Below, piece by piece: positions 1-34,745 of a stretch of 64,000 bases of DNA. A program made the position numbers and the translations under genes. The notes under the pieces were generated by a model. The model was not told the DNA's origin and made no database searches. It worked only from the letters and a program-made list of their open reading frames with translations. Where the stretch lies: IMG/VR virus record IMGVR_UViG_3300045988_107203, positions 15,075 through 79,074 of that record; one strand, given 5' to 3'. The DNA is from a virus. Positions within the stretch are counted from its first letter, which is position 1, and each line of letters begins with the position of its first letter.

Positions 1-462
1 GTCAGTGGGTGCACGTCCCGCGTATGCTTTAGACTGAAGCTGACAAAACAGAGAGTTATTTTACATATTGGAGATAGATATACCTTTGCCCTTGCCGTTG
101 GCAATTAAAGGGCTGGTATTACTGCATGTACTACATTGGATAAATGTAGTTATGTTAGGTATGTTAGTACAGTTTGGAAAACATACCGTTGTACGCGGTT
201 TATCTCCAGACCGAAACGTGCCTTACTTGCCTGCACGTAAAATAGGACAAGGCTGTAGATTAAATTACAGGGTATAAACATGTAGCCTAACATGTAGGAA
301 CATGTTGTATCAAAACGCAAGGACACAATCGCCTTTATTTGTGGCTAAGTTGTGTAGCAGACGGAAAATATAATAACAACATAGTACGGGCCTGTACACA
401 AGAACTACGTACTAATTACGGGCTGTTGGTTGTAGCATAAAATTCGTATAGAATAGGAATGC

Positions 463-684
463 GTGTTCGGTCCGATTCCGGAGCAACCTCTAAATTATAA
501 ACAATATAATAACATGGGAAAGAAAGCAATGATCAACGCTTTAACTGAAGCGTTCAATAAATCTAAAAACAGTTGCGTAAAAATAACATTGCGTAACTAT
601 ATCGAGACGGTGGAAACACTTAGTGAAAATGAGTATAAAGAGGCGGAGAGTTTCTATATTGAAGCACTTAATAGATGGAGTTAA
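463..684 (+). CDS. hypothetical small protein (73 aa)
   Basis: ORF in track; lies in a largely non-coding AT-rich region; no recognisable motif. Confidence 0.3.
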   Translation: MFGPIPEQPLNYKQYNNMGKKAMINALTEAFNKSKNSCVKITLRNYIETVETLSENEYKEAESFYIEALNRWS

Positions 685-1590: not shown

Positions 1591-1688
1591 AGCCGGAGGA
1601 TTAGCGGGAGTTGGAGAGGGGGAGAGGGAGAGGGGGAGAGAGCGGGAGAGGGGGAGAGAGCGGGAGGGAGCGGGAGAGGGGGGAGGGC
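1591..1688. repeat. polypurine (GA/GGGAGA)n tract ~95 nt
   Basis: GGAGAGGGGGAGAGGGAGAGGGGGAGAGAGCGGGAGAGGGGGAGAGAGCGGGAGGGAGCGGGAGAGGGGGGAGGG; almost pure purine on + strand; generates spurious ORFs on both strands. Confidence 0.9.
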
Positions 1689-1696
1689 ACTCCCTT

Positions 1697-1864
1697 CCAA
1701 CAAAATCCAATAACTCCAATCCGACAAAATTTAACAACTCCCTTCCAACAAAATTCAATAGATAAGCGTTTTAAAACAACATTATGTAGTGTTTTCCCAC
1801 AAAATTAAGGATTACAGTGCTTTAAAACAGCAAAATGTGAGTTTATTCTACAAAATTCAATAGG
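1697..1864. repeat. iteron-like direct repeats (C)CAACAAAAT(T/C)CAATA x>=5
   Basis: copies at 1697-1712, 1721-1736, 1745-1760, 1796-1810, 1848-1864; candidate origin/packaging iterons. Confidence 0.6.
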
Positions 1865-2303
1865 TTGAGAGTTGAAAACTATATTCTATAGATTAGTAGT
1901 AATCGGAATGTATAACAATTAAAACATAAACAACATGAACGTATATGACTTTGCGCCTGACTTAGATTTGAGTAAGGAGGGAGAAGGTTCTATTTTTGGG
2001 GTGAAAGGGATAGAAGGCAGTGATGGTATAGTATATGCTAAGGTAGTTAGCTGTGTAGAAATTAGGGATTACAGTTGTGAGAGGTGTATTTTTTTTATGA
2101 TTATTATAAGGATAGATGTTTGTTATCGCGTAGTAATAGTTGTATAGATGGAGACTGGTGTTGTAGGTACGAACAGGCTGCCATAGAGGGGGAGTAGGCG
2201 GCGCCTTGGGCTAAGGCCTGCGGTTGTAGGTGGAACGTAGTTCGGAGCAGAGCCGGAACAGTTTATTGTGGAACTAAAAAAATAAAAAGGAGGAGATAGC
2301 GAT

Positions 2304-2384
2304 ATGAAAAAGGCATTTAAGATATTTTCTATTATGTTTGTCATAGAAATAGTGCTGATAGCTATTTTAGATGCTATGGCGTAA
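2304..2384 (+). CDS. 26-aa hydrophobic peptide MKKAFKIFSIMFVIEIVLIAILDAMA
   Basis: ATG preceded by strong SD AAAGGAGGAG; single TM-like helix; not in ORF track (<60 aa). Confidence 0.35.
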   Translation: MKKAFKIFSIMFVIEIVLIAILDAMA

Positions 2385-2428
2385 GTGAGAAAAATTTCTT
2401 CATTAATTTTCTTATGCTTTAGACAGAA

Positions 2429-2456
2429 TGCTCCCGTCTGCGAAGATCGGAGCATT
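2429..2456 (+). terminator. stable hairpin ATGCTCC(CG)-GUCUGCGAAGAU-(CG)GGAGCAT
   Basis: 7-9 bp stem; loop GTCTGCGAAGAT shared with terminator at 6957-6992; weak U tract after. Confidence 0.4.
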
Positions 2457-2463
2457 TGCTTTA

Positions 2464-2508
2464 TGGGATTCATGGTGCGGTAGGCTGGTTCGATTCCGGC
2501 GATCTCAC
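2464..2508 (+). ncRNA. tRNA-like minihelix A (7-bp acceptor-like stem + T-arm GCTGG-TTCGATT-CCGGC; no D/anticodon arms; no encoded CCA)
   Basis: TGGGATT(2464-2470) pairs with GATCTCA(2501-2507); canonical GGTTCGATTCC T-loop; 13-nt linker instead of D/anticodon arms; 3' tail CACAACATTAAAA shared with element B. Confidence 0.45.
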
Positions 2509-2748
2509 ACAACATTAAAATAGGGAAGAATATGTTAAAAGAAGAATTTGAAGAACTGATTAAAAGGGAGGTAAACGAAAATCAGTATAAAAACATAGAA
2601 ACGGCATACGAGGCTTTGCCAAAGCAAGAGAGATTGCCGTGCGATTAATAGGAGAGAGGGAAACAGTGGCATACACAGTAAAAGAAGGGCTGCCATTGTG
2701 GGAACAAGATAAAAAGTTTATAATAGAATTAATAAAGGAGGATAGAAA

Positions 2749-3090
2749 ATGAAAGACGGTATTGTATTGCATCCAGAGCATGGGTTGAATCCATCCATAG
2801 AACTATGCATAGTATGCGGTGAAGAGATGGGGATTGCTTTATTAGGGAATAACATCAAAGGGCAGGCGCCGCATCATATATGCACGGGAGAAATATGTGA
2901 CAACTGCAAAAAGATAATAGATGACGGAGGTTGTTTTATTATCGAAGTTGAGGATGGATCAGATCAAAAGAATCCGTATCGTACAGGAAGATATTGTGCG
3001 ATAAAGAAAGAGGTGGCAAAGAAGATATTTGGACAGGAGCATAATATTGTGTACATGGAAAAGTCTGCATACAGTCAAATAATACCATAA
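2749..3090 (+). CDS. Cys-rich zinc-ribbon protein (CxxC...CxxC), 113 aa
   Basis: SD AAGGAGG 8 nt upstream; CIVCGEE and CDNCKK motifs. Confidence 0.6.
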   Translation: MKDGIVLHPEHGLNPSIELCIVCGEEMGIALLGNNIKGQAPHHICTGEICDNCKKIIDDGGCFIIEVEDGSDQKNPYRTGRYCAIKKEVAKKIFGQEHNIVYMEKSAYSQIIP

Positions 3091-3104
3091 AAATAAAGAA
3101 GGAT

Positions 3105-3419
3105 ATGTTTACAAAAGAAGAGCGATTATTCATATGGAAAAAGGTATATGAGATGATTGATAGGTTAGAGGATGGGGAATACATATGTGTTGCGTTAAGA
3201 AATGTAGTGTTTATGTATTTCAAAACACATAAAAATATCTATGAGTTTCGTTCAGACGAAATGGTGAGAATATATTTCCCGGAATTGGAGGAGAAGATAA
3301 GTATGGCCACAGAACCAGAGGAAACAAGAACGTTTTATGGGTGGTTTGGTTGTCTTAGTCCAGAAACGAAGGAGGTAAGGCTGAATATTGTGAAAGATAT
3401 TATAAAAGAATTAGAATAG
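3105..3419 (+). CDS. hypothetical protein (104 aa)
   Basis: tiled ORF, no overlap. Confidence 0.55.
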   Translation: MFTKEERLFIWKKVYEMIDRLEDGEYICVALRNVVFMYFKTHKNIYEFRSDEMVRIYFPELEEKISMATEPEETRTFYGWFGCLSPETKEVRLNIVKDIIKELE

Positions 3420-3466
3420 TATTTTTGTTAATCTATTTTATTCATCAAATTAAGTTTTTGGGTTTT

Positions 3467-3496
3467 GGCATGTCGGTTCGTGAGGATAGGCATGCC
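3467..3496 (+). other. hairpin GGCATG-(loop with GGTTCGTGA)-CATGCC preceding tRNA-like element B
   Basis: 6-bp perfect stem; same position relative to minihelix as hairpin 2429-2456. Confidence 0.4.
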
Positions 3497-3514
3497 TATT
3501 TCTGCATCATAGAG

Positions 3515-3574
3515 GGGATGACGCGGCGTGCCGGTGTGTATGTGCCGGTCCTGGTTCGATTCTGGGCATCTCAC
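3515..3574 (+). ncRNA. tRNA-like minihelix B (6-bp acceptor-like stem + CCGG hairpin linker + T-arm CCTGG-TTCGATT-CTGGG)
   Basis: GGGATG(3515-3520) pairs CATCTC(3567-3572); GGTTCGATTC T-loop; tail CACAAACAATAAAA parallels element A; no D/anticodon arm, no CCA. Confidence 0.4.
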
Positions 3575-3599
3575 AAACAATAAAACAAAAAAGTTATGA

Positions 3600-3749
3600 G
3601 AATATATAAGAATGATATTATAAAGGCGTCAGCAATAAGCACCGGAGCCGACAGAGGCGTGTTGCTGTGTTCAATAACAGATTCAGGCTTTACGTCTATA
3701 GCGGGCGTAATATCGGCTGTTAAGAAGACAGGGCAAATATAATGTTTAA
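3600..3749 (+). CDS. possible small protein (49 aa) MRIYKNDIIKASAISTGADRGVLL...
   Basis: ATG-initiated ORF directly after minihelix B; below track threshold. Confidence 0.25.
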
Positions 3750-3810
3750 TTATCATCTGACACATAAATGGGATCAGTATTACCATTAAATAACATAAAA
3801 CAATAATAAT

Positions 3811-4065
3811 ATGACAGAGAATAGTATAGACGTAAATATCGTACCTGTAAAGAATGGTATGAAACGTGTTGTGGTATCATATTACCATTATTCACGCAAG
3901 GAGAAAGATCGCATGAGTTCCCAAACGGATTACGTTTGGGAAACAAAGAATGAAGAAATGTTTAAATACTTTGAGGCCAGGAGGACAAAAGTATTTTATA
4001 GTCAGATTCGTGCCATGTGTAGATTCTATGGCGAGAAAAATGTACGTAAATACAAAAAGTTATGA
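3811..4065 (+). CDS. hypothetical protein (84 aa)
   Basis: tiled ORF; ATGA overlap with next gene. Confidence 0.5.
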   Translation: MTENSIDVNIVPVKNGMKRVVVSYYHYSRKEKDRMSSQTDYVWETKNEEMFKYFEARRTKVFYSQIRAMCRFYGEKNVRKYKKL

Positions 4066-4871
4066 TATTAAAAACGACAACCAACGAGTTTTGTTTCATT
4101 AACGTAAGTTTCTACGAAACAATAGCAGATCCTCGTCATTTCTTTGAACAGGATTATGAAGAGATGCCAGAATATGAGGAGGAATCGGATTTTGATTTTG
4201 ATTCTTATTACAATAAGTTTATTCCTTTTGTACAGGAATGGGCGAATGAGGTGGGCGAACGCCTTTACGGATATGGCGTGAATAGTATAAAGGTAACATC
4301 GGTCGGATATCCGAAAGAATATAATTATGGTACTGATTGGATGAACGTAGAGGTAGAGTTTTGTGATGAATGGAGGCAAAAGATGTTATCTAACATTAGT
4401 AAGATTGTCAATGATGATAAATGCAAGAAGTATGCGGAGACTAATTACCGGTCGGTATCAGGATACATCTTTTTAGGGCCTGAAGATTTAAAGGAATTTG
4501 AAAAGGAAATAATAGAAAGAAAGTCGGATTCCGGATATGATGTAACAATATTATTAAATATGTATCTAACTTTGGCTTTTGTAAAAGAATTTGGATTTAA
4601 AGCCGGAGAAGCATGGAGTGAAATAACAGAATATGCTTACGGATGTTTATCGTATTCCGATTTTGCAACAACAGAGATGCTTATACCGGAAGGTTCGGAG
4701 CATTTATTCAAAGACATTTACACGGCAAAGGCCGACGAATTATATCATCATGTCCTGGATAAATTCGGATGGGCGTGGCGTGATCCGAAATATAAGTCAG
4801 AAACAGAATTATGCGCAATGCTAAAGTGGGCAAAAGAAAAAGGCTTGACCATTGAAGAGTTAAGTATTTAA
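4062..4871 (+). CDS. hypothetical acidic protein (269 aa)
   Basis: long ORF, start coupled to previous stop. Confidence 0.7.
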   Translation: MILKTTTNEFCFINVSFYETIADPRHFFEQDYEEMPEYEEESDFDFDSYYNKFIPFVQEWANEVGERLYGYGVNSIKVTSVGYPKEYNYGTDWMNVEVEFCDEWRQKMLSNISKIVNDDKCKKYAETNYRSVSGYIFLGPEDLKEFEKEIIERKSDSGYDVTILLNMYLTLAFVKEFGFKAGEAWSEITEYAYGCLSYSDFATTEMLIPEGSEHLFKDIYTAKADELYHHVLDKFGWAWRDPKYKSETELCAMLKWAKEKGLTIEELSI

Positions 4872-6956: not shown

Positions 6957-6992
6957 CGGCACTGGTCTGCGAAGATAGGTGCCGTTTTTTTT
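6957..6992 (+). terminator. intrinsic terminator CGGCAC-UGGUCUGCGAAGAUA-GUGCCG + T8
   Basis: perfect 6-bp stem, GNRA-containing loop identical in core to 2437-2448, then TTTTTTTT. Confidence 0.75.
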
Positions 6993-15247: not shown

Positions 15248-15919
15248 ATGAATGATATGAACAATTTTATAATAGATACTCCAGATAATTTCTGGCAAAT
15301 AAGATGGCTTGACAAATATATGGAAGGTCACAAGGGGTTCATAGCTGGTGGATGTTTTAAGAATATCCTTTCCGGAGAAAGAGTAAAAGATATTGATATT
15401 TTCTTTGAAAGCGAAGACGATTTTCAGGAAGCTGTTGATTTGTTCAATGATGAAAAACATCAGAAAGAAGGATGGAAATTTAAGTACAGGAATGAGAAGG
15501 TATGCGCATTCCAGAAAGAGGGAGAAAAGGTATGGGTAGAGTTCATAGAGTCAGAGTTCGGAAAGCCTGAAGAGATTCTCAGGAGCTTCGACTTTACTGT
15601 GGCAAAAATGGCTTACTACAAGGAGCCTAAATACGAAGAAGAGGAAGATGATTATTTTCCATTCTCATCTGCAAGTATAGTAGCATACGAGTACAAACTA
15701 CTCTACCATGAGAAATTCTTTGAACATCTTCATATGAAGAGGCTGGTCATTGATGAAAATATTCCTTTTCCAGTAAGCACATGGGAGCGCTCATATCGGT
15801 ATAAAGGATATGGTTACAATATGTGCCGGGAGACAAAGAAAAAACTTCTACAGGCTATTAAAGGTGTAAACGTAGAGGAGGAAGATGTATCTTTGTACAC
15901 TACTGGAGGATGGGATTAA
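15248..15919 (+). CDS. minimal nucleotidyltransferase, Pol-beta superfamily; head motif resembles class-II CCA/poly(A) NTases
   Basis: FIAGGCFKNILSGERVKDIDIFF aligns to GGxVRDxLLGxxxxDxD head motif (E. coli CCA: [23 protein letters not shown]); only 223 aa. Confidence 0.45.
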   Translation: MNDMNNFIIDTPDNFWQIRWLDKYMEGHKGFIAGGCFKNILSGERVKDIDIFFESEDDFQEAVDLFNDEKHQKEGWKFKYRNEKVCAFQKEGEKVWVEFIESEFGKPEEILRSFDFTVAKMAYYKEPKYEEEEDDYFPFSSASIVAYEYKLLYHEKFFEHLHMKRLVIDENIPFPVSTWERSYRYKGYGYNMCRETKKKLLQAIKGVNVEEEDVSLYTTGGWD

Positions 15920-17505: not shown

Positions 17506-18825
17506 ATGAAGTCGAGAACGAAATTGGAAAAGCTGGTGACGGAGTTAAGCGGAAAACTGCCTGCCATCACGAAGGAACAGGAAGACTGGGCCAAAGAGCA
17601 TCTGTTTGACCATTTTGCCTACAAATGTAAGGATGAGCTATGGTGTTCCGAATGTGGTAAGATGTGGATCAATACGAGTAAAGATAAATTGGGCGACAAA
17701 ATCGAATGCCCTTATTGCCATCATCAATTGGACGTAAAGGTCAGCCGGAAGCAGAAGATCCGTGAAGAGGCGTATATGTCCATCCTGCAGGTGAAAGGCG
17801 GGTTCCAGGTGATCCGGCATATACTATGTTGGAAAAATATTCGGAAGGAAACTTCTCCGGTGTGTTATGATTTTACAGAAGTGGTTCAAGAGTGGATTCG
17901 TGAAGACGGAAAACGTACGATCATAGCCCGACCGATGAACATGGGAGGTAACGGATGGATATATGGTGAACCTCTCAGTATCAAAGGAGAATATGGAAGT
18001 AGCCCCTATAACTATTACGGTGATTTATATGCGATACATGGAGAGCTTTATCCAAGGAAAGAATTACTGCCGGAATTAAAAAAACGGGGACTGAATCGAC
18101 GGTTCCCAGATGTAACCCCGTCGAAATTGATACGTGATTTATTGAAAGGTGGTAACGATTCGGAATTGTGTCTGAAGACCGGGCAAATCTCCATGCTGAA
18201 GCATATGTATAGAAACGGCTTCTATCACCTTCGCTATAAACCGTCGTTCAACATCTGCAACCGTAACCATTATATTATCAAGGATGCGTCCATGTGGGAA
18301 GATTATATGTCTTTGCTGTCTTACTTTGGTAAGGATATGCGTAACGCCCACTATGTCTGCCCTAAGAACCTGAAAACTGCACATGATAAACTACTAAAGA
18401 TAAAACAGGTACGTGAAGCCAAGTTGAGACAGGAAAGAGATCGAGCACAATCTATCAGTAAGCGTGAAAAGTTAATGAAGGATATAGCCGGCTTCTACGA
18501 GCGGATGGAAAAGTTCTTCGGATTGAGAATCGAAGAAGAGGATATAATCATCCGCCCTTTGGAAAGTGTCACCCAGTTTTATCAGGAAGGTAAGGTCATG
18601 CACCATTGCGTATATCAGAACGGATACTACAGACGGCCGGAATGCCTGATATTATCGGCAAAGGACACGGCTGGAAAACGATTGGAGACGATAGAGGTAA
18701 ACTTGAATACACTGGATATCGTCCAGTCCCGATCCTTCTGTAACGGCGTAAGCGAGTATCACGATCAGATAGTAAAACTGGTGAAAAAGAATATAAATCT
18801 GATTCGTCGTAAAATGATTGCATAA
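17506..18825 (+). CDS. PcfJ-like protein (439 aa)
   Basis: N-terminal CxxC...CPYC zinc ribbon; C-terminal MHHCVYQNGYY...FCNGVSEYH resembling PcfJ-like family (pCF10 PcfJ); local GC content higher than flanks. Confidence 0.45.
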   Translation: MKSRTKLEKLVTELSGKLPAITKEQEDWAKEHLFDHFAYKCKDELWCSECGKMWINTSKDKLGDKIECPYCHHQLDVKVSRKQKIREEAYMSILQVKGGFQVIRHILCWKNIRKETSPVCYDFTEVVQEWIREDGKRTIIARPMNMGGNGWIYGEPLSIKGEYGSSPYNYYGDLYAIHGELYPRKELLPELKKRGLNRRFPDVTPSKLIRDLLKGGNDSELCLKTGQISMLKHMYRNGFYHLRYKPSFNICNRNHYIIKDASMWEDYMSLLSYFGKDMRNAHYVCPKNLKTAHDKLLKIKQVREAKLRQERDRAQSISKREKLMKDIAGFYERMEKFFGLRIEEEDIIIRPLESVTQFYQEGKVMHHCVYQNGYYRRPECLILSAKDTAGKRLETIEVNLNTLDIVQSRSFCNGVSEYHDQIVKLVKKNINLIRRKMIA

Positions 18826-20929: not shown

Positions 20930-22235
20930 ATGGATGAATTGGTTTGATTAATTTTGAATCAAAATTACAGATAAAAAAATGATTTCATACAAATACAACA
21001 TCTATCATTCCAAGAAAACGAAGTATCTCGACAAAATGCTTCGAGAATGTTGTTTTGTATGGAATCATGCTTTAGCTCTACAACGTAGATACTACAAACT
21101 GTTTGGAAAATATATCTCAGTTAGTAAAATGAAAAAGCATTTTGCAAAAAGGATAAAAAGAAATCTTCTTCATTCCCAAACAGTGCAAGAAATACTTGAA
21201 CGTCTTGATGAATCTTATAATCGTTTCTTCAAGAAATTGGCTAAACGACCTCCTAAGTTTAAATCACCGGAGAAATTCAATTCTTTTGTATTCAAACAAG
21301 GTGGGTTTACCCTGAATGGTAATTGTTTAACAATTAACAAAGGGAAGAAACGATTTAGATTTTCATACAGTAGAGTCTACGAAGGTAATGTTAAACAAAT
21401 TAGAATAGTTAGAGAAACCTGTTCACGTTTTAGTTTGATTATAGTTACAGATCATAATCTAACAAACTCTTATAGAAAGACACATGATGGTGCATCTATC
21501 GGATTGGATTTTGGCCTGAAAACTTATCTAACTAAAAGTGATGGGAACAAAATTGATTCTCCATTATTCTTTAAACAATATCAAAACAAGATTAGAAAAC
21601 TAAACAAACGGCTTTCTAATGCAAAGAAAGGATCCAACAATAGAAGAAGGAGACTGTTTGAACTACAACAAGCGTATCGTAAAATAAACGATCTTCGATC
21701 GGATTTTCAATGGGGATTAGCTCATGATTTGTGTAAACAATATGATTATATTTTTATTGAAGATCTAAACATTGAAGGAATGAAACGTTTGTGGGGAAAG
21801 AAAGTTTCTGATCTCAGTCATTCTTCTTTTATTGATAAACTAATGTATGTTGCCTCAAAGTATGGAGTGATAGTACACAAGATTGACAAATGGTATCCTT
21901 CTTCCAAAACTTGTGAATGTGGCTGCATTAATAAAGGACTGTCGTTACGCGACCGCACGTGGGTATGCCCGGCGTGCGGTCGCGTAACGACCGTGACATT
22001 CTTGCAGCCCGTAATATACTTCGGAAGGGCATTTCCGAATTGGAGAGCAAGAGTAATTCCAGCGATATTAATATCGGGGTTTCTTGCGTTTGTATCCAAG
22101 AATCCCATTTGCTTTAGCGATGGGAGTGTGTCATCTAATAATGAGATGATGATGATGGACGTTTTGCAGTGGTGTTCTGAAAGATTTAAAAATAGTATAG
22201 AGAAAGGAAAGAAATCAACTAATTAAATATTAATA
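20930..22235 (+). mobile_element. IS200/IS605-family (IS1341-like) element carrying tnpB only
   Basis: TnpB ORF; candidate left-end hairpin TTGATTAATTTTGAATCAA at 20944-20962; palindrome CGATATTAATATCG at 22058-22071 near 3' end where an omegaRNA would lie; no Y1 tnpA seen. Confidence 0.6.
20979..22117 (+). pseudogene. tnpB: TnpB (RNA-guided RuvC-like nuclease), near full length but frameshifted between zinc finger and RuvC-III
   Basis: RuvC-I IGLDFGLKTY, RuvC-II FIEDLNIEGM, ZnF CECGC...CPACGR in track frame; RuvC-III NDRDILAARNILRKG only in the -1 frame (MPGVRSRNDRD...LL* ending 22117); track ORF tail 22000-22226 is not TnpB-like. Confidence 0.8.
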
Positions 22236-32934: not shown

Positions 32935-33275
32935 ACAGTGCTTTACTAATTACGATATTTTTAACATGGATTTTGGACAAGATTTAGAACCAGAAGAACT
33001 GACCAATCATTATGATCAGTGTTATAACCCCAAATAGTATTAAACCAATATAATTCTATTATAAAAGTTTAATACATCTCTTTAAGAGATCGGGTTATTA
33101 GCCTAAGCCTTGAAACAAAGGCTACGTTATTTAAGAATAGATAGTTACCTACGGATGTTTGCCCAAGTCTGTAGCTCTAAGGTAAGTGATTAAACAGTTC
33201 TGGTATTCAGGAACAGTGTTGCTTATTCAAAACCTCAAATAACATTGGCGATGGGTACTTACAGGAGAAATCCTG

Positions 33276-33381: not shown

Positions 33382-33729
33382 ATGGAATTGATTTTGAAAC
33401 AGAAGAAGAGGAGGATGAAGAGTATGACTGACGAGGAATTTGTATTGGATAATAAGAAAAAGGTTGTTGTAAGAAAAAGAATATCTTATTTAAACAAAGG
33501 TGATAAAGTATGGATCGTGTCTTCCGACGGGTATCTGCTACACACGGACGTAGTTAGAGCCGAACGGGGCCGATCTTATGTGGATATAGACGGGATACTG
33601 TATTGGAAACGAGGATTGGATGGTAAACATCGTAATCGTAATAACTACATGCAGTTTGCCATGACACCAGAAGACGGTAAGAAGTATGTCGTATATTACC
33701 CGGAAGGATTTAAAGACGATAGCTTATGA
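33382..33729 (+). CDS. hypothetical protein (115 aa)
   Basis: tiled ORF. Confidence 0.55.
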   Translation: MELILKQKKRRMKSMTDEEFVLDNKKKVVVRKRISYLNKGDKVWIVSSDGYLLHTDVVRAERGRSYVDIDGILYWKRGLDGKHRNRNNYMQFAMTPEDGKKYVVYYPEGFKDDSL

Positions 33730-34745
33730 TGGTCCCAGAAACGCATTTGCTATATAAGGAGTTTAATGGCGTGAAACGTCTTGCCATATCTTATTCCCAG
33801 ATAGATACGTTTCTTACTTGTCCAATGAAATGGTATAAGACTTACGTAGAGGGTAAAAGGTCTACAGAAAAACAAGAAGCTACGTCTTATGGTACGGTTA
33901 TCCATAAGACACTGGAATACTTCTTCAAAAACGGAAGACAGCCTTCTGGTAAAGACCTTGGAGAAGCAATAAGTTACTATGCTTACCAAGAAGACATACC
34001 TTGGCAATCACCGGAAAATATGATGATAGCCATGAAACAATCTGGGGAGCTTCTTGCTTGGATTGTGGATCTGTTTAAAAAAGACGGGAATGGGTTTATG
34101 ATAGCTGATAGTGATCTTAATCCCTGTGAGAAACTTATCAGGCACGGCGCCATAGTTGGAGTCGAAGAAGATTTTGTGCTGCCGTACCGTCTTCCTAAGC
34201 CTGTTGATATAAATGGAGTAATTCATACTCATGTGTACATAGTAGGATCGGTAGACCTTCATCTGGCTATAAAGAGCAAGAACGTAGTTCACCATTATGT
34301 CATAGATTGGAAATCAGGGAATAAGGTTTTTGATTCTAAGAAACTGGAGACAAATTTACAACATCCTATATATTCGTTTTACATCTATAGAAAATATGGT
34401 GGGGTTCTACCAGATATGAACATCTATTTCTTTACCAGGACCAGGCAGTACCAAAAGGTTAAAGTAGATGAAGATCGTAAAACAAAATCTATAGAGATGC
34501 TAAATAACACTTTATCCAAAATGTATGATTTTGAAGATAATAGTGTAAAAACATTTCAGGCATACATCCAGGGAGTAGAAGGAGCCAGGTATAGCAAGCG
34601 GCGTGCCACTCTAAGCCAGCCTGTTCCGCAAAACAAGCTACCCTGCCCGTCGGCACTGTGTTATTATTGTGACTTTGGATTACATAACAAAAACGAATGC
34701 CCTTTCTCTTCGGATTGGGATCCGTCTAAAAAGATAAAGCGATGA
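33726..34745 (+). CDS. Cas4-like / RecB-family PD-(D/E)XK exonuclease with Cys cluster (339 aa)
   Basis: N-terminal TCPMKWY Cys; motif II GSVDLHL; motif III YVIDWKSGNK; C-terminal CPSALCYYC...ECPF (Fe-S-type triad). Confidence 0.65.
   Translation: MMVPETHLLYKEFNGVKRLAISYSQIDTFLTCPMKWYKTYVEGKRSTEKQEATSYGTVIHKTLEYFFKNGRQPSGKDLGEAISYYAYQEDIPWQSPENMMIAMKQSGELLAWIVDLFKKDGNGFMIADSDLNPCEKLIRHGAIVGVEEDFVLPYRLPKPVDINGVIHTHVYIVGSVDLHLAIKSKNVVHHYVIDWKSGNKVFDSKKLETNLQHPIYSFYIYRKYGGVLPDMNIYFFTRTRQYQKVKVDEDRKTKSIEMLNNTLSKMYDFEDNSVKTFQAYIQGVEGARYSKRRATLSQPVPQNKLPCPSALCYYCDFGLHNKNECPFSSDWDPSKKIKR

Follow-up and report, generated by a model that had tools for sequence, protein, structure and literature searches.

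The human-gut phage represented by this DNA (genome of approximately 150 kb) carries three tRNA-like minihelices, here termed A, B and C, each of which sits between a terminator-type hairpin and the next gene, on the same strand as the genes. In A and B a canonical T-arm is stacked on an acceptor-like helix of 6–7 bp, and D-arm, anticodon arm and encoded CCA are all absent; the T-arm on an acceptor-like helix and the lack of CCA agree in sequence and coordinates with the earlier note on this region. That note recognized two elements, both of which are real, but the count was too low, as C is a third paralog. The reading tentatively favoured here is that A, B and C are tRNA-derived processing signals, similar to t-elements, at which RNase P and RNase Z would cleave read-through transcripts.

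ARAGORN found no tRNA or tmRNA in the window (the whole 64,000 nt stretch analysed), in L001 or in the distant loci, and the Rfam tRNA model had no match in the window even at E≤10. The sole Rfam match in searches at gathering and permissive thresholds was that of a 17 nt T-arm to beta_tmRNA (E=1.9). With no cloverleaf detected by either program, the view that these are not ordinary tRNA genes stands. A minihelix scan of the 64 kb under strict criteria returned A, B and C and no other structure (three hits), whereas 500 shuffles gave 0.01 hits on average; C was also assigned to a repeat family by repeat search. The 10-mer GGTTCGATTC by itself is not significant against chance; the 23-mer common to A and B is significant (0 expected). 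RNA folding, suggested previously as a check, supports hairpin A; the folding z-scores are unremarkable and thermodynamic folding alone misses the acceptor helix of A, the tRNA-like fold of which is not the minimum in nearest-neighbour folding (−10.7 versus −13.0 kcal/mol). The alternative helix preferred by folding for A was rejected because it is broken in most natural variants.

The acceptor pairing, earlier described as perfect in both elements, is unbroken in A, with 7 pairs including two that are G·U or U·G, whereas in B it comprises six pairs (GGGATG/CATCTC) and a G/A mismatch. Likewise, the description ‘acceptor stem and T-arm only’ fits A, where only 13 nt separate the acceptor 5′ strand from the T-arm, but not B; both B and C have an extra inner hairpin at this position that is absent from A. 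The T-arm motif GGTTCRANYCC is present as GGTTCGATTCC in A and GGTTCGATTCT in B. The universal T-arm features are all found: the G53–C61 pair is invariant across 34 variants, and the loop reads U54 U55 C56 R57 A58, with U55 changed to C in the window's copy of C alone. Across copies the acceptor helix is effectively 6 bp long, pair 1–72 being unpaired in 24 of 34 variants, and most copies would thus form an 11 bp rather than a 12 bp stack. A C nucleotide follows the helix in 32 of the 34 variants, on which no inference is built because of exceptions in L132 and ambiguity of register. Coordinates are collected in Table 1.

Table 1. Minihelices, flanking features and related loci (window positions unless a locus is named)
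Feature	Position	Strand	Details or basis
Hairpin upstream of C	383–413	+	Stem AGTACG/CGTACT
Element C minihelix	427–490	+	Own scan, repeat-family search
C acceptor 5′ strand	427–433	+	TGGTTGT; inner hairpin 435–462
C T-stem	466–470/478–482		T-loop 471–477, TCCGATT here, TTCGATT in relatives
C acceptor 3′ strand	483–489		GCAACCT, then C
Hairpin upstream of A	2426–2457	+	9 bp outer stem, 1×1 internal loop, 4 bp inner stem
Element A minihelix	2464–2508	+	Own pairing scan, sequence check, relatives
A acceptor 5′ strand	2464–2470	+	TGGGATT
A linker	2471–2483	+	Variable, 13 nt
A T-arm	2484–2500		T-stem GCTGG/CCGGC 2484–2488/2496–2500; T-loop TTCGATT 2489–2495
A acceptor 3′ strand	2501–2507	+	GATCTCA; C at 2508
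A tail, A/C-rich	2508–2531	+	CACAACATTAAAA; then ribosome-binding site, ATG at 2532
Ultra-conserved intergenic stretch upstream of hairpin B	3420–3466	+	47 nt; diversity
Hairpin upstream of B	3467–3496	+	8 bp, 1×1 loop, 4 bp, GUGA tetraloop
Element B minihelix	3514–3574	+	Own pairing scan, sequence check, relatives
B acceptor 5′ strand	3514–3520	+	GGGGATG
B linker with inner hairpin	3531–3535/3544–3548		5 bp and 8 nt loop
B T-arm	3550–3566		T-stem CCTGG/CTGGG; T-loop 3555–3561
B acceptor 3′ strand	3567–3573	+	CATCTCA; C at 3574
B tail	3574–3595	+	CACAAACAATAAAAC; ATG of next gene at 3596
Reference hairpin, same design, then T8	6957–6984	+	Plain intrinsic terminator; comparison only, no minihelix
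Nucleotidyltransferase gene, 223 aa	15248–15919	+	Class-II CCA-adding/poly(A)-polymerase head motifs GGCFKNILSGERVKDIDIFF; RSFDFTVAKMAY
A ortholog	L132 7429–7480		Compensated stems GGGACT/AGTCTC, TCCGG/CCGGA
B-type orthologs	L130 7997–8057; L132 9912–9975		Different stems, same tail

Conservation in related phages, which the earlier note had named as a check, is strong: A, B and C are conserved among >100 related gut-phage contigs, with C in 47 loci. The T-loop is nearly invariant, including in copies that were not selected by the search pattern, and change within it in related phages is limited to positions 59/60. These positions vary in real tRNAs too. Nucleotide diversity is 0–0.004 in the T-loop, whereas linkers and stems have 0.07–0.12 and third codon positions nearby 0.10; in A, neither the T-loop nor either acceptor strand shows any diversity (0), versus 0.12 in the linker. 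In B, diversity is highest (0.11) in the loop of the inner hairpin, two relatives have lost this hairpin altogether, and the 5′ G-run differs in length among copies. The D/anticodon region of these elements is lost, or is free to vary or be deleted.

Within the clade the stems are kept by compensatory substitutions, 6 pairs of C having changed on both sides. Over greater distances, L130 and L132 have counterparts of these elements, similarly placed and with stems of wholly different sequence, beside an ORF that is only 51–55 % identical. Covariation was assessed on a gap-free alignment of spliced 34 nt cores with the linker removed (34 variants). In this alignment, which spans paralogs and distant lineages, pairing holds in 92.9 % of cells, versus 71.8 % in shuffles and 34–59 % when the partner strand is slid, in a sample of which part (L130 and L132) came from a scan requiring pairing; 11 of the 12 pairs change on both sides. 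MAFFT misaligned the 5′ strands of the paralogs owing to differences in linker length. The minihelix is nevertheless dispensable in some lineages. L133 retains the hairpin and tail and lacks the minihelix, L128 has a degenerate 6 nt loop in place of the T-loop, and several close relatives have lost B along with its cassette.

The hairpins reported earlier before A and B are present, placed as in Table 1, but are not special to the minihelices; they follow a general terminator-type design of the phage, and its true tRNA genes are preceded by this hairpin too. The inner part GTCTGCGAAGAT is identical in hairpin A and in the hairpin at 6957–6984. Hairpin A is capped by a GCGA tetraloop and is followed by GCUUUAU; it is 98.6 % paired in relatives, with 3 pairs changed on both sides. 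Hairpin B is 99.8 % paired in relatives, and for the hairpin before C pairing is complete (100 %) in 29 variants, two of its pairs having changed on both sides (AGTACG/CGTACT to ATCACG/CGTGAT). The related tails CACAACATTAAAA and CACAAACAATAAAA noted after A and B are present, and the B tail CAAACAATAAAAC recurs unchanged in the distant L132 ortholog. The next ATG lies 24–25 nt away for A and C and 22 nt away for B. Beyond the tail of A, relatives carry alternative sequence classes, and diversity reaches 0.51 at 2521–2531. By comparison, the intergenic stretch before hairpin B has a diversity of 0.002, versus 0.10 for third positions of codons in the ORF beside it, and is possibly a promoter. 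A sigma-70 scan at the elements and at this stretch was at background level with no convincing match. Three candidate motifs shared by the upstream regions (ATTAAGTTTTTG, TATGCTTTAGAC and ATTTNWTTCATYAAWTT) showed no enrichment either, and the idea that the elements contain, or closely follow, a promoter was dropped on these grounds.

The phage family has its own tRNA cluster (tRNA-Met/Gln/Arg/Cys), and its arrangement parallels that of the minihelices. A GNRA-capped hairpin of the same design is located 4–6 nt before tRNA-Met and tRNA-Arg, the true tRNAs are without encoded CCA, a C follows N73 in all four, and a gene starts approximately 20 nt after tRNA-Cys. The acceptor and trailer of C resemble those of tRNA-Cys. 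The window also encodes a 223 aa protein that is 96 % identical to WOZ57379.1, annotated as polyA polymerase/CCA-adding enzyme, and that matches the phrog_1614 nucleotidyltransferase (E 3.5e-9); its match to the Pfam PolyA_pol head is below threshold (E 0.06). The best PDB matches of its AlphaFold model (pLDDT 72) are A-adding, CCA-adding and PAP enzymes (E 8e-5 to 1e-3, TM approximately 0.43). A close relative carries a polynucleotide kinase/phosphatase and an NrnA-like phosphodiesterase.

RNase P, RNase Z and CCA-adding enzymes need no more of their substrate than an acceptor helix with a T-arm, and this is the part retained in A, B and C, which favours a processing role. On such a model the elements would reside inside the phage's long same-strand early transcripts, the minihelix keeping only the part of a tRNA that processing enzymes read. 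With the hairpin one gene cassette would end; the next would begin with an unstructured A/C-rich leader, followed by its ribosome-binding site and ATG. Where RNA polymerase reads through the weak terminator, as we infer that it does, the minihelix could fold; host RNase P would then cleave on its 5′ side, so that a protective hairpin would close the 3′ end of the upstream mRNA, and RNase Z or another 3′ pathway would cut just past the helix, giving the downstream mRNA a short leader. The excised stub of 45–65 nt may gain CCA from the host enzyme or from the phage CCA-adding-like nucleotidyltransferase.

Several lines of evidence point this way: the failure of tRNA and tmRNA searches despite the presence of universal T-arm features; the near-invariant T-loop beside compensated stems, with equivalents in L130 and L132; the true-tRNA context of shared hairpin, absent CCA, C after N73 and nearby gene start; and the t-element precedent (PMC1920247). 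The reading is weakened by the 6 bp acceptor, by the fold of A not being the minimum and the unremarkable z-scores, by dispensability and by the pairing-selected part of the covariation sample. Of the functions listed previously (processing signals, degenerate tRNAs, primers, and mimic or decoy RNAs), the evidence thus favours the first, and a role as primers is without support.

It is less likely that the elements are decayed tRNA genes within repeated intergenic cassettes of hairpin, stub and leader, acting at the DNA level as homology patches for recombination that reshuffles small gene cassettes, with a functionless RNA fold. The gene content between and after the elements does vary, the A-to-B spacing ranging from 490 to 2190 nt; the sequence right after the tails switches among a few classes common to A and B; L046 and L095 are deletions joining A to sequence normally found after B; and C resembles a duplicated tRNA-Cys with its trailer. 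There is also precedent in the PeSLs (PMC2839356, PMC4122927). Homology for recombination, however, leaves unexplained both the invariant T-loop beside compensated stems and the fold kept in distant lineages with unrelated stems. The two readings are compatible, as a functional RNA signal can double as a recombination patch.

A similarly low probability attaches to the minihelices being excised, CCA-tailed and stable small RNAs that mimic the acceptor/T-arm half of a tRNA, so as to titrate or occupy a toxin or defence nuclease acting at tRNA 3′ ends, a CCA-adding enzyme, EF-Tu or an aminoacyl-tRNA synthetase. The structural conservation argues for such mimicry as it does for processing, and the phage has a toolkit for tRNA maturation and repair (the nucleotidyltransferase and its own tRNAs, with the kinase/phosphatase and NrnA-like protein in the close relative). 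The third-position G·U pair is invariant in A: in a 7 nt register that is itself uncertain, G3·U70 is present in 34 of 34 copies of A and in most copies of B. It is replaced by A-U in some B copies and by G-C in C and is absent from the L130 and L132 orthologs, however, and so in this register appears not to be conserved across the family. Loss of the elements in some lineages and the lack of a dedicated promoter in the sigma-70 scan also stand against mimicry; the invariable placement between hairpin and next leader suggests a role in cis, and a mimic of one particular tRNA would hardly be expected to have three different acceptor sequences. A more elaborate form appears less probable still, namely that CCA-tailed minihelices are made deliberately, by excision through host RNase P and RNase Z and finishing by the phage nucleotidyltransferase, and then serve as trans decoys or sponges or as chargeable minihelices. 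At that same low level of confidence, the target in trans might be a host factor of tRNA 3′ ends (a toxin or defence nuclease), and the chargeable form might disturb translation quality control.

The T-arm and 3′ acceptor region of tRNA genes are frequent integrase targets, and A and B are direct repeats around a variable segment. Even so, an origin of the elements as attP-like copies of a host tRNA gene's 3′ end, or as attL/attR scars of an element integrated into a tRNA gene, is very improbable. When 185,579 species-representative genomes were scanned for the exact pattern, no tRNA gene proved to have this 3′ half; the scan gave only four chance matches without a tRNA and a 3.9 kb copy of this phage binned as a Veillonella MAG, and an att-site origin was rejected on this result. 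Each element moreover brings its own matching 5′ acceptor strand, needless for an att fragment, and no integrase is annotated in the inspected parts of the close relative, which lie outside 50–101 kb. The least credible proposals are that decoding tRNAs were missed (D-armless, or with an 8 nt anticodon loop) or that the region is protein-coding: the inner hairpin of B (5 bp with an 8 nt loop) lies where an anticodon arm would be and GenBank OR575929 annotates a 52 aa CDS (WOZ57404.1) over B, but neither ARAGORN nor Rfam detects anything, A lacks this arm altogether, the anticodon-arm reading of the hairpin is rejected because its loop is hypervariable and it is deleted in two relatives, and indels of 1–3 nt and 14 nt inside B would put any reading frame out of register.

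Processing signals that resemble tRNAs are well documented in plant mitochondria and in a few lncRNAs of eukaryotes, and RNase P is known to cut a handful of bacterial and phage RNAs. To our knowledge, conserved paralogous anticodon-less tRNA stubs between phage terminator hairpins and downstream cistrons have not been described; a search of the literature on minihelix and tRNA-like elements in phages found nothing specific on such stubs, and nothing on this phage. If the cleavage model is correct, phages reuse decayed tRNA genes to punctuate and stabilize polycistronic mRNAs, a T-arm motif with acceptor pairing in the absence of a tRNA call becomes a signature for other viral genomes, and spurious CDS annotations such as WOZ57404.1 over B can be corrected. 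Together, the CCA-less phage tRNAs and the minimal CCA-adding-like enzyme make a role in trans directly testable; were the minihelices decoys in trans, they would be a new class of phage counter-defence RNA.

Among phage tRNA clusters co-transcribed with mRNAs, that of this phage family shares with A, B and C the preceding hairpin, the lack of CCA and a gene start approximately 20 nt on, but consists of full cloverleafs with anticodons, whereas the minihelices cannot decode. The tRNA-like domain of tmRNA likewise has an acceptor stem and T-arm and no anticodon arm, and the inner helix of B and C emerges where the P2 helix of tmRNA does, between the acceptor 5′ strand and the T-arm. Unlike tmRNA, the elements have no tag reading frame and no pseudoknots and are only 45–65 nt long, and in the 7 nt register its alanine identity pair G3·U70 does not seem to be conserved across the family. 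In MALAT1/mascRNA a stabilizing RNA structure is followed by a tRNA-like element, and the RNase P cut makes the 3′ end of the upstream RNA. The upstream structure directly before the tRNA-like element is common to both systems; MALAT1/mascRNA, however, is a eukaryotic nuclear lncRNA with a fuller cloverleaf mimic and a triple-helix stabilizer instead of a GNRA hairpin, and has no sequence relationship to A, B and C.

The PeSLs of T4-type phages are repeated intergenic stem-loop motifs flanking small variable ORFs, where recombination leads to cassette gain and loss (PMC2839356, PMC4122927). The repeats described here similarly flank variable ORFs, with A×B deletions in L046 and L095. PeSLs have an early promoter and no tRNA-like structure, whereas no promoter was identified in the A/B/C repeats by the sigma-70-type scan, and these include a structurally constrained minihelix. 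The t-elements of plant mitochondria (Forner et al. 2007) were found via GGTTCRANYCC, are non-cloverleaf and lie at mRNA boundaries; RNase P and RNase Z are proposed, and in part shown, to cleave them and thereby generate mRNA 3′ and 5′ ends, and the excised stubs gain non-encoded C, CC or CCA (PMC1920247). A, B and C have the same kind of non-cloverleaf tRNA-like fold, with this motif in A and B and the fold here backed by covariation, but in a bacteriophage rather than an organelle, where the corresponding cleavages are those that we infer. Unlike t-elements, they systematically follow a terminator-type hairpin and precede a conserved A/C-rich leader, and they form a small paralogous family conserved across phage lineages.

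The earlier note had placed two tRNA-like minihelices here, A and B; a sequence check bears out both positions (2464–2508 and 3514–3574) but not the count, as a third, element C, is located at 427–490. 'Acceptor and T-arm only' describes A with its 13 nt linker, but not B, whose linker contains a small inner hairpin, as does that of C. At the 3′ side of A and B there is a C and an A/C-rich tail, with the ribosome-binding site and ATG of the next gene 22–24 nt past the element (ATG 2532 and 3596). The T-loop of this copy of C (471–477) is TCCGATT, with C in place of U55. Each of the other 28 distinct C variants, among the matches listed from related phages, has TTCGA at loop positions 1–5; the copy in the window may be slightly degenerate.

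Minihelix elements, terminator-type hairpins and repeats in the window
Feature	Position	Strand	Detail
A, acceptor 5′ strand	2464–2470	+	TGGGATT
A, linker	between 2470 and 2484	+	13 nt
A, T-arm	2484–2500	+	GCTGG-TTCGATT-CCGGC
A, acceptor 3′ strand	2501–2507	+	GATCTCA
B, acceptor 5′ strand	3514–3520	+	GGGGATG
B, linker		+	29 nt; own small hairpin 3531–3535/3544–3548
B, T-arm	3550–3566	+	CCTGG-TTCGATT-CTGGG
B, acceptor 3′ strand	3567–3573	+	CATCTCA
C	427–490	+	inner hairpin 435–462; preceding hairpin 383–413
Hairpin of A/B design with T-run	6957–6984	+	
Hairpin of A/B design with T-run	49917–49884	−	
Hairpin of A/B design with T-run	43266–43233	−	
AGGCGGTAGGGCGTGGG, two copies	1444, 1562		repeat region 1440–1900
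Purine-rich (GGGAGA)n-like repeats	1603–1690		repeat region 1440–1900
24 nt repeat, three copies	1689–1760		repeat region 1440–1900
51 nt repeat, three copies	1748–1891		repeat region 1440–1900

The window is part of a human-gut phage of ~150 kb, and positions 2200–3800 share 95 % identity with phage csAssE-Sib (OR575929). Over the first ~40 kb the + strand carries a long run of genes that have strong Shine–Dalgarno sites and are often small; A and B both occupy intergenic gaps of this array. Given these sites, a Firmicutes/Negativicutes host fits better than Bacteroidota. Hairpin A and element A also occur on a contig of 3.9 kb (NZ_DXLG01000138.1; locus L126) that is assigned to a Veillonella sp. 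MAG; the assignment either hints weakly at the host or is an artefact of binning. The window also encodes a PcfJ-like protein (17506–18825, +; Pfam E 5e-37) and a 415 aa ORF (20979–22226, +) with OrfB_IS605, Cas12f1-like TNB and HTH_OrfB_IS605 domains, a predicted TnpB-type RNA-guided nuclease gene within the phage. In csAssE-Sib, a diversity-generating retroelement with annotated VR/TR and reverse transcriptase adjoins a tail-fibre gene (L122 45751–47816). Dense repeats without a long ORF fill 1440–1900; since the linear GenBank record of a close relative ends near the equivalent of about window 1070, this region may lie close to an origin, a packaging site or the end of the genome.

ARAGORN called no tRNA or tmRNA in the whole window. 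At the gathering threshold Rfam returned only a HEARO RNA, unrelated to the minihelices, and at E≤10 the sole relevant match was the bare 17 nt T-arm of A. Missed tRNA genes are thereby rejected, in agreement with the earlier note. HEARO is the HNH endonuclease-associated RNA, the guide-RNA scaffold of IscB-type nucleases; the copy here (33024–33262, +) is full-length and scores 111 bits, where the gathering score is 83, with a 339 aa ORF downstream (33726–34745). A scan of the 64 kb on both strands for a T-loop, a 5 bp T-stem and an adjoining 3′ strand pairing with an upstream segment gave exactly three sites, A, B and C, all on the + strand and none beyond the first 3.6 kb; an independent repeat search also puts these three into one family (D5). 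With strict criteria, the mean over 500 shuffles that preserved dinucleotides was 0.01 sites, and no shuffle contained three.

An exact-pattern scan of viral contigs yielded at least 119 loci, most with two copies. Among these listed loci BLAST recovered A in at least 109, B in at least 99 and C in at least 48, so the expected conservation in related phages is borne out. To avoid bias from the search pattern, A was measured only in loci captured by B, and B only in those captured by A; C was never pattern-selected. Nucleotide diversity is 0 to 0.004 in the T-loops and 0 in both acceptor strands of A, against 0.12 in its linker, 0.08 in its hairpin stems, 0.11 in the inner hairpin of B and 0.10 at third codon positions of the adjacent 104 aa ORF. 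In related phages the T-loop varies only at positions 59/60 (TTCGAGT, TTCGAAT, TTCGACT, TTCGAGC), also variable in real tRNAs, the sole exception being the window's own C. Within each paralog the proposed helices are 96–99 % paired, with four (alignment of A), one (of B) and six (of C) pairs changed on both sides. A 52 aa hypothetical protein (WOZ57404.1 in OR575929; window 3425–3583, +; L001 2541–2699) is annotated across hairpin B and element B. Indels in B among relatives (5′-edge G-runs of 3–6, and a 14 nt deletion removing the inner hairpin) are incompatible with any reading frame; this gene call is therefore probably spurious, and coding sequence is rejected. The most conserved segment of the region is the 47 nt intergenic stretch directly upstream of hairpin B (3420–3466, +), where diversity is 0.002 compared with 0.10 for third codon positions nearby. 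Nothing in it matches sigma-70 well, and it could be a phage-specific promoter or protein-binding site. A 16-mer, TATGCTTTAGAC[T/A]GAA, has just two exact copies (23–38 and 2413–2428, +), the second adjoining hairpin A.

More distant phages were reached through homologs of the neighbouring 269 aa ORF (4062–4871). Two minihelices occur in L130 (51 % protein identity); one of them, which has a hairpin, the T-loop TTCGAGT and the tail CAACAATTTAAAAC, immediately precedes the ORF homolog. Of the three in L132 (55 %), one is orthologous to A, its stems compensated (GGGACT/AGTCTC; TCCGG/CCGGA), another is a B-type element whose acceptor (TTTCGTT/AACGGAG) is unrelated to that of B yet whose tail, CAAACAATAAAAC, is identical, and the third has a perfectly paired 7 bp acceptor. 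ARAGORN called none of the L130 and L132 minihelices. In L128 (57 %) the hairpin occurs together with a Y-shaped element that has a degenerate 6 nt loop in its 3′ hairpin, and in L133 (56 %) hairpin and tail are present and the minihelix is absent. In a gap-free alignment of 34 distinct cores, with linkers spliced out, pairing along the continuous 12-pair helix reaches 92.9 %, compared with 71.8 % in shuffles and 34–59 % with the partner slid, five of the rows (L130, L132) having come from a scan that required pairing. Both partners have changed in eleven of the 12 pairs, giving a covariation score of 0.72 against 0.28. Pair 1–72 is unpaired in 24 of 34 rows, making the acceptor helix effectively 6 bp.

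The hairpins reported before each element are present, but a special link to minihelices does not hold. Hairpins A (2426–2457) and B (3467–3496) share a 7–10 bp outer stem, 1×1 internal loop, 4 bp inner stem and GNRA tetraloop, which the scan identifies as the phage's general terminator design. Relatives that cover it have, some 9 kb upstream and with the same orientation, a tRNA cluster (Met, Gln, Arg-CCT, Cys) in which this hairpin precedes tRNA-Met by 6 nt and tRNA-Arg by 4 nt; copies preceding tRNAs and minihelices have weak or absent U-tracts. The true tRNAs likewise lack an encoded CCA and carry a C after N73, and a gene start lies about 20 nt after tRNA-Cys. A hairpin with a tRNA and a hairpin with a minihelix thus seem to be alternative forms of a single module that can stand in for each other. 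The acceptor and trailer of C resemble tRNA-Cys, and the 5′ part of A is tRNA-like as far as the D-loop; most simply, the stubs would be tRNA genes minus the D/anticodon region.

At a minimum, RNase P, RNase Z and CCA-adding enzymes need an acceptor helix, T-stem and T-loop in their substrate. Selection has retained exactly these parts, and what varies or can be deleted is the region these enzymes do not require. Of the roles offered in the earlier note (processing signal, degenerate tRNA, primer, mimic or decoy), the retained substrate and the position of the elements favour a cis-acting processing signal, a tentative reading to which we give slightly less than an even chance. In read-through transcripts the minihelix would be the site of cleavage, leaving the upstream mRNA with a protective hairpin as its end and a downstream mRNA starting at the A/C-rich leader.

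A trans-acting decoy or mimic RNA is less favoured and appears unlikely. The structure would allow it, as would the phage's tRNA toolkit: a 223 aa nucleotidyltransferase (15248–15919) with class-II CCA-adding/poly(A)-polymerase head motifs, whose model (pLDDT 72) is most similar, at modest TM, to structures of A-adding, CCA-adding and PAP enzymes, and, in csAssE-Sib, a polynucleotide kinase/phosphatase and an NrnA-like enzyme. However, the elements share no conserved identity element, their three acceptor sequences are mutually unrelated and they have been lost repeatedly. That the phage's own minimal nucleotidyltransferase helps to make CCA-tailed decoys from the stubs is more doubtful still. 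A role at the DNA level only, as recombination patches, is similarly improbable, since an invariant T-loop beside compensatory stem evolution would be left unexplained. In its favour are real A × B deletions: the tail of A is fused directly to sequence normally after B in L046, and in L095 to an internal part of the gene that follows B. In both, recombination between the paralogous elements has removed the entire A-to-B cassette. The promoter/stem-loop (PeSL) cassettes of T4-type phages are a supporting precedent (PMC2839356, PMC4122927), and a patch role may well exist alongside an RNA role. An att-site origin is rejected, as no bacterial tRNA gene with this 3′ half was found in 185,579 species genomes scanned for the exact pattern.

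Processing signals resembling tRNAs are already known in organelles and eukaryotic lncRNAs. To our knowledge no such minihelix family has been described in phages, and a literature search for one found none. The closest likeness to the proposed cis-acting signals is with the t-elements of plant mitochondria, which have the same GGTTCRANYCC motif, through which they were discovered, and the same role as that proposed here; their excised stubs carry non-encoded C, CC or CCA (PMC1920247).
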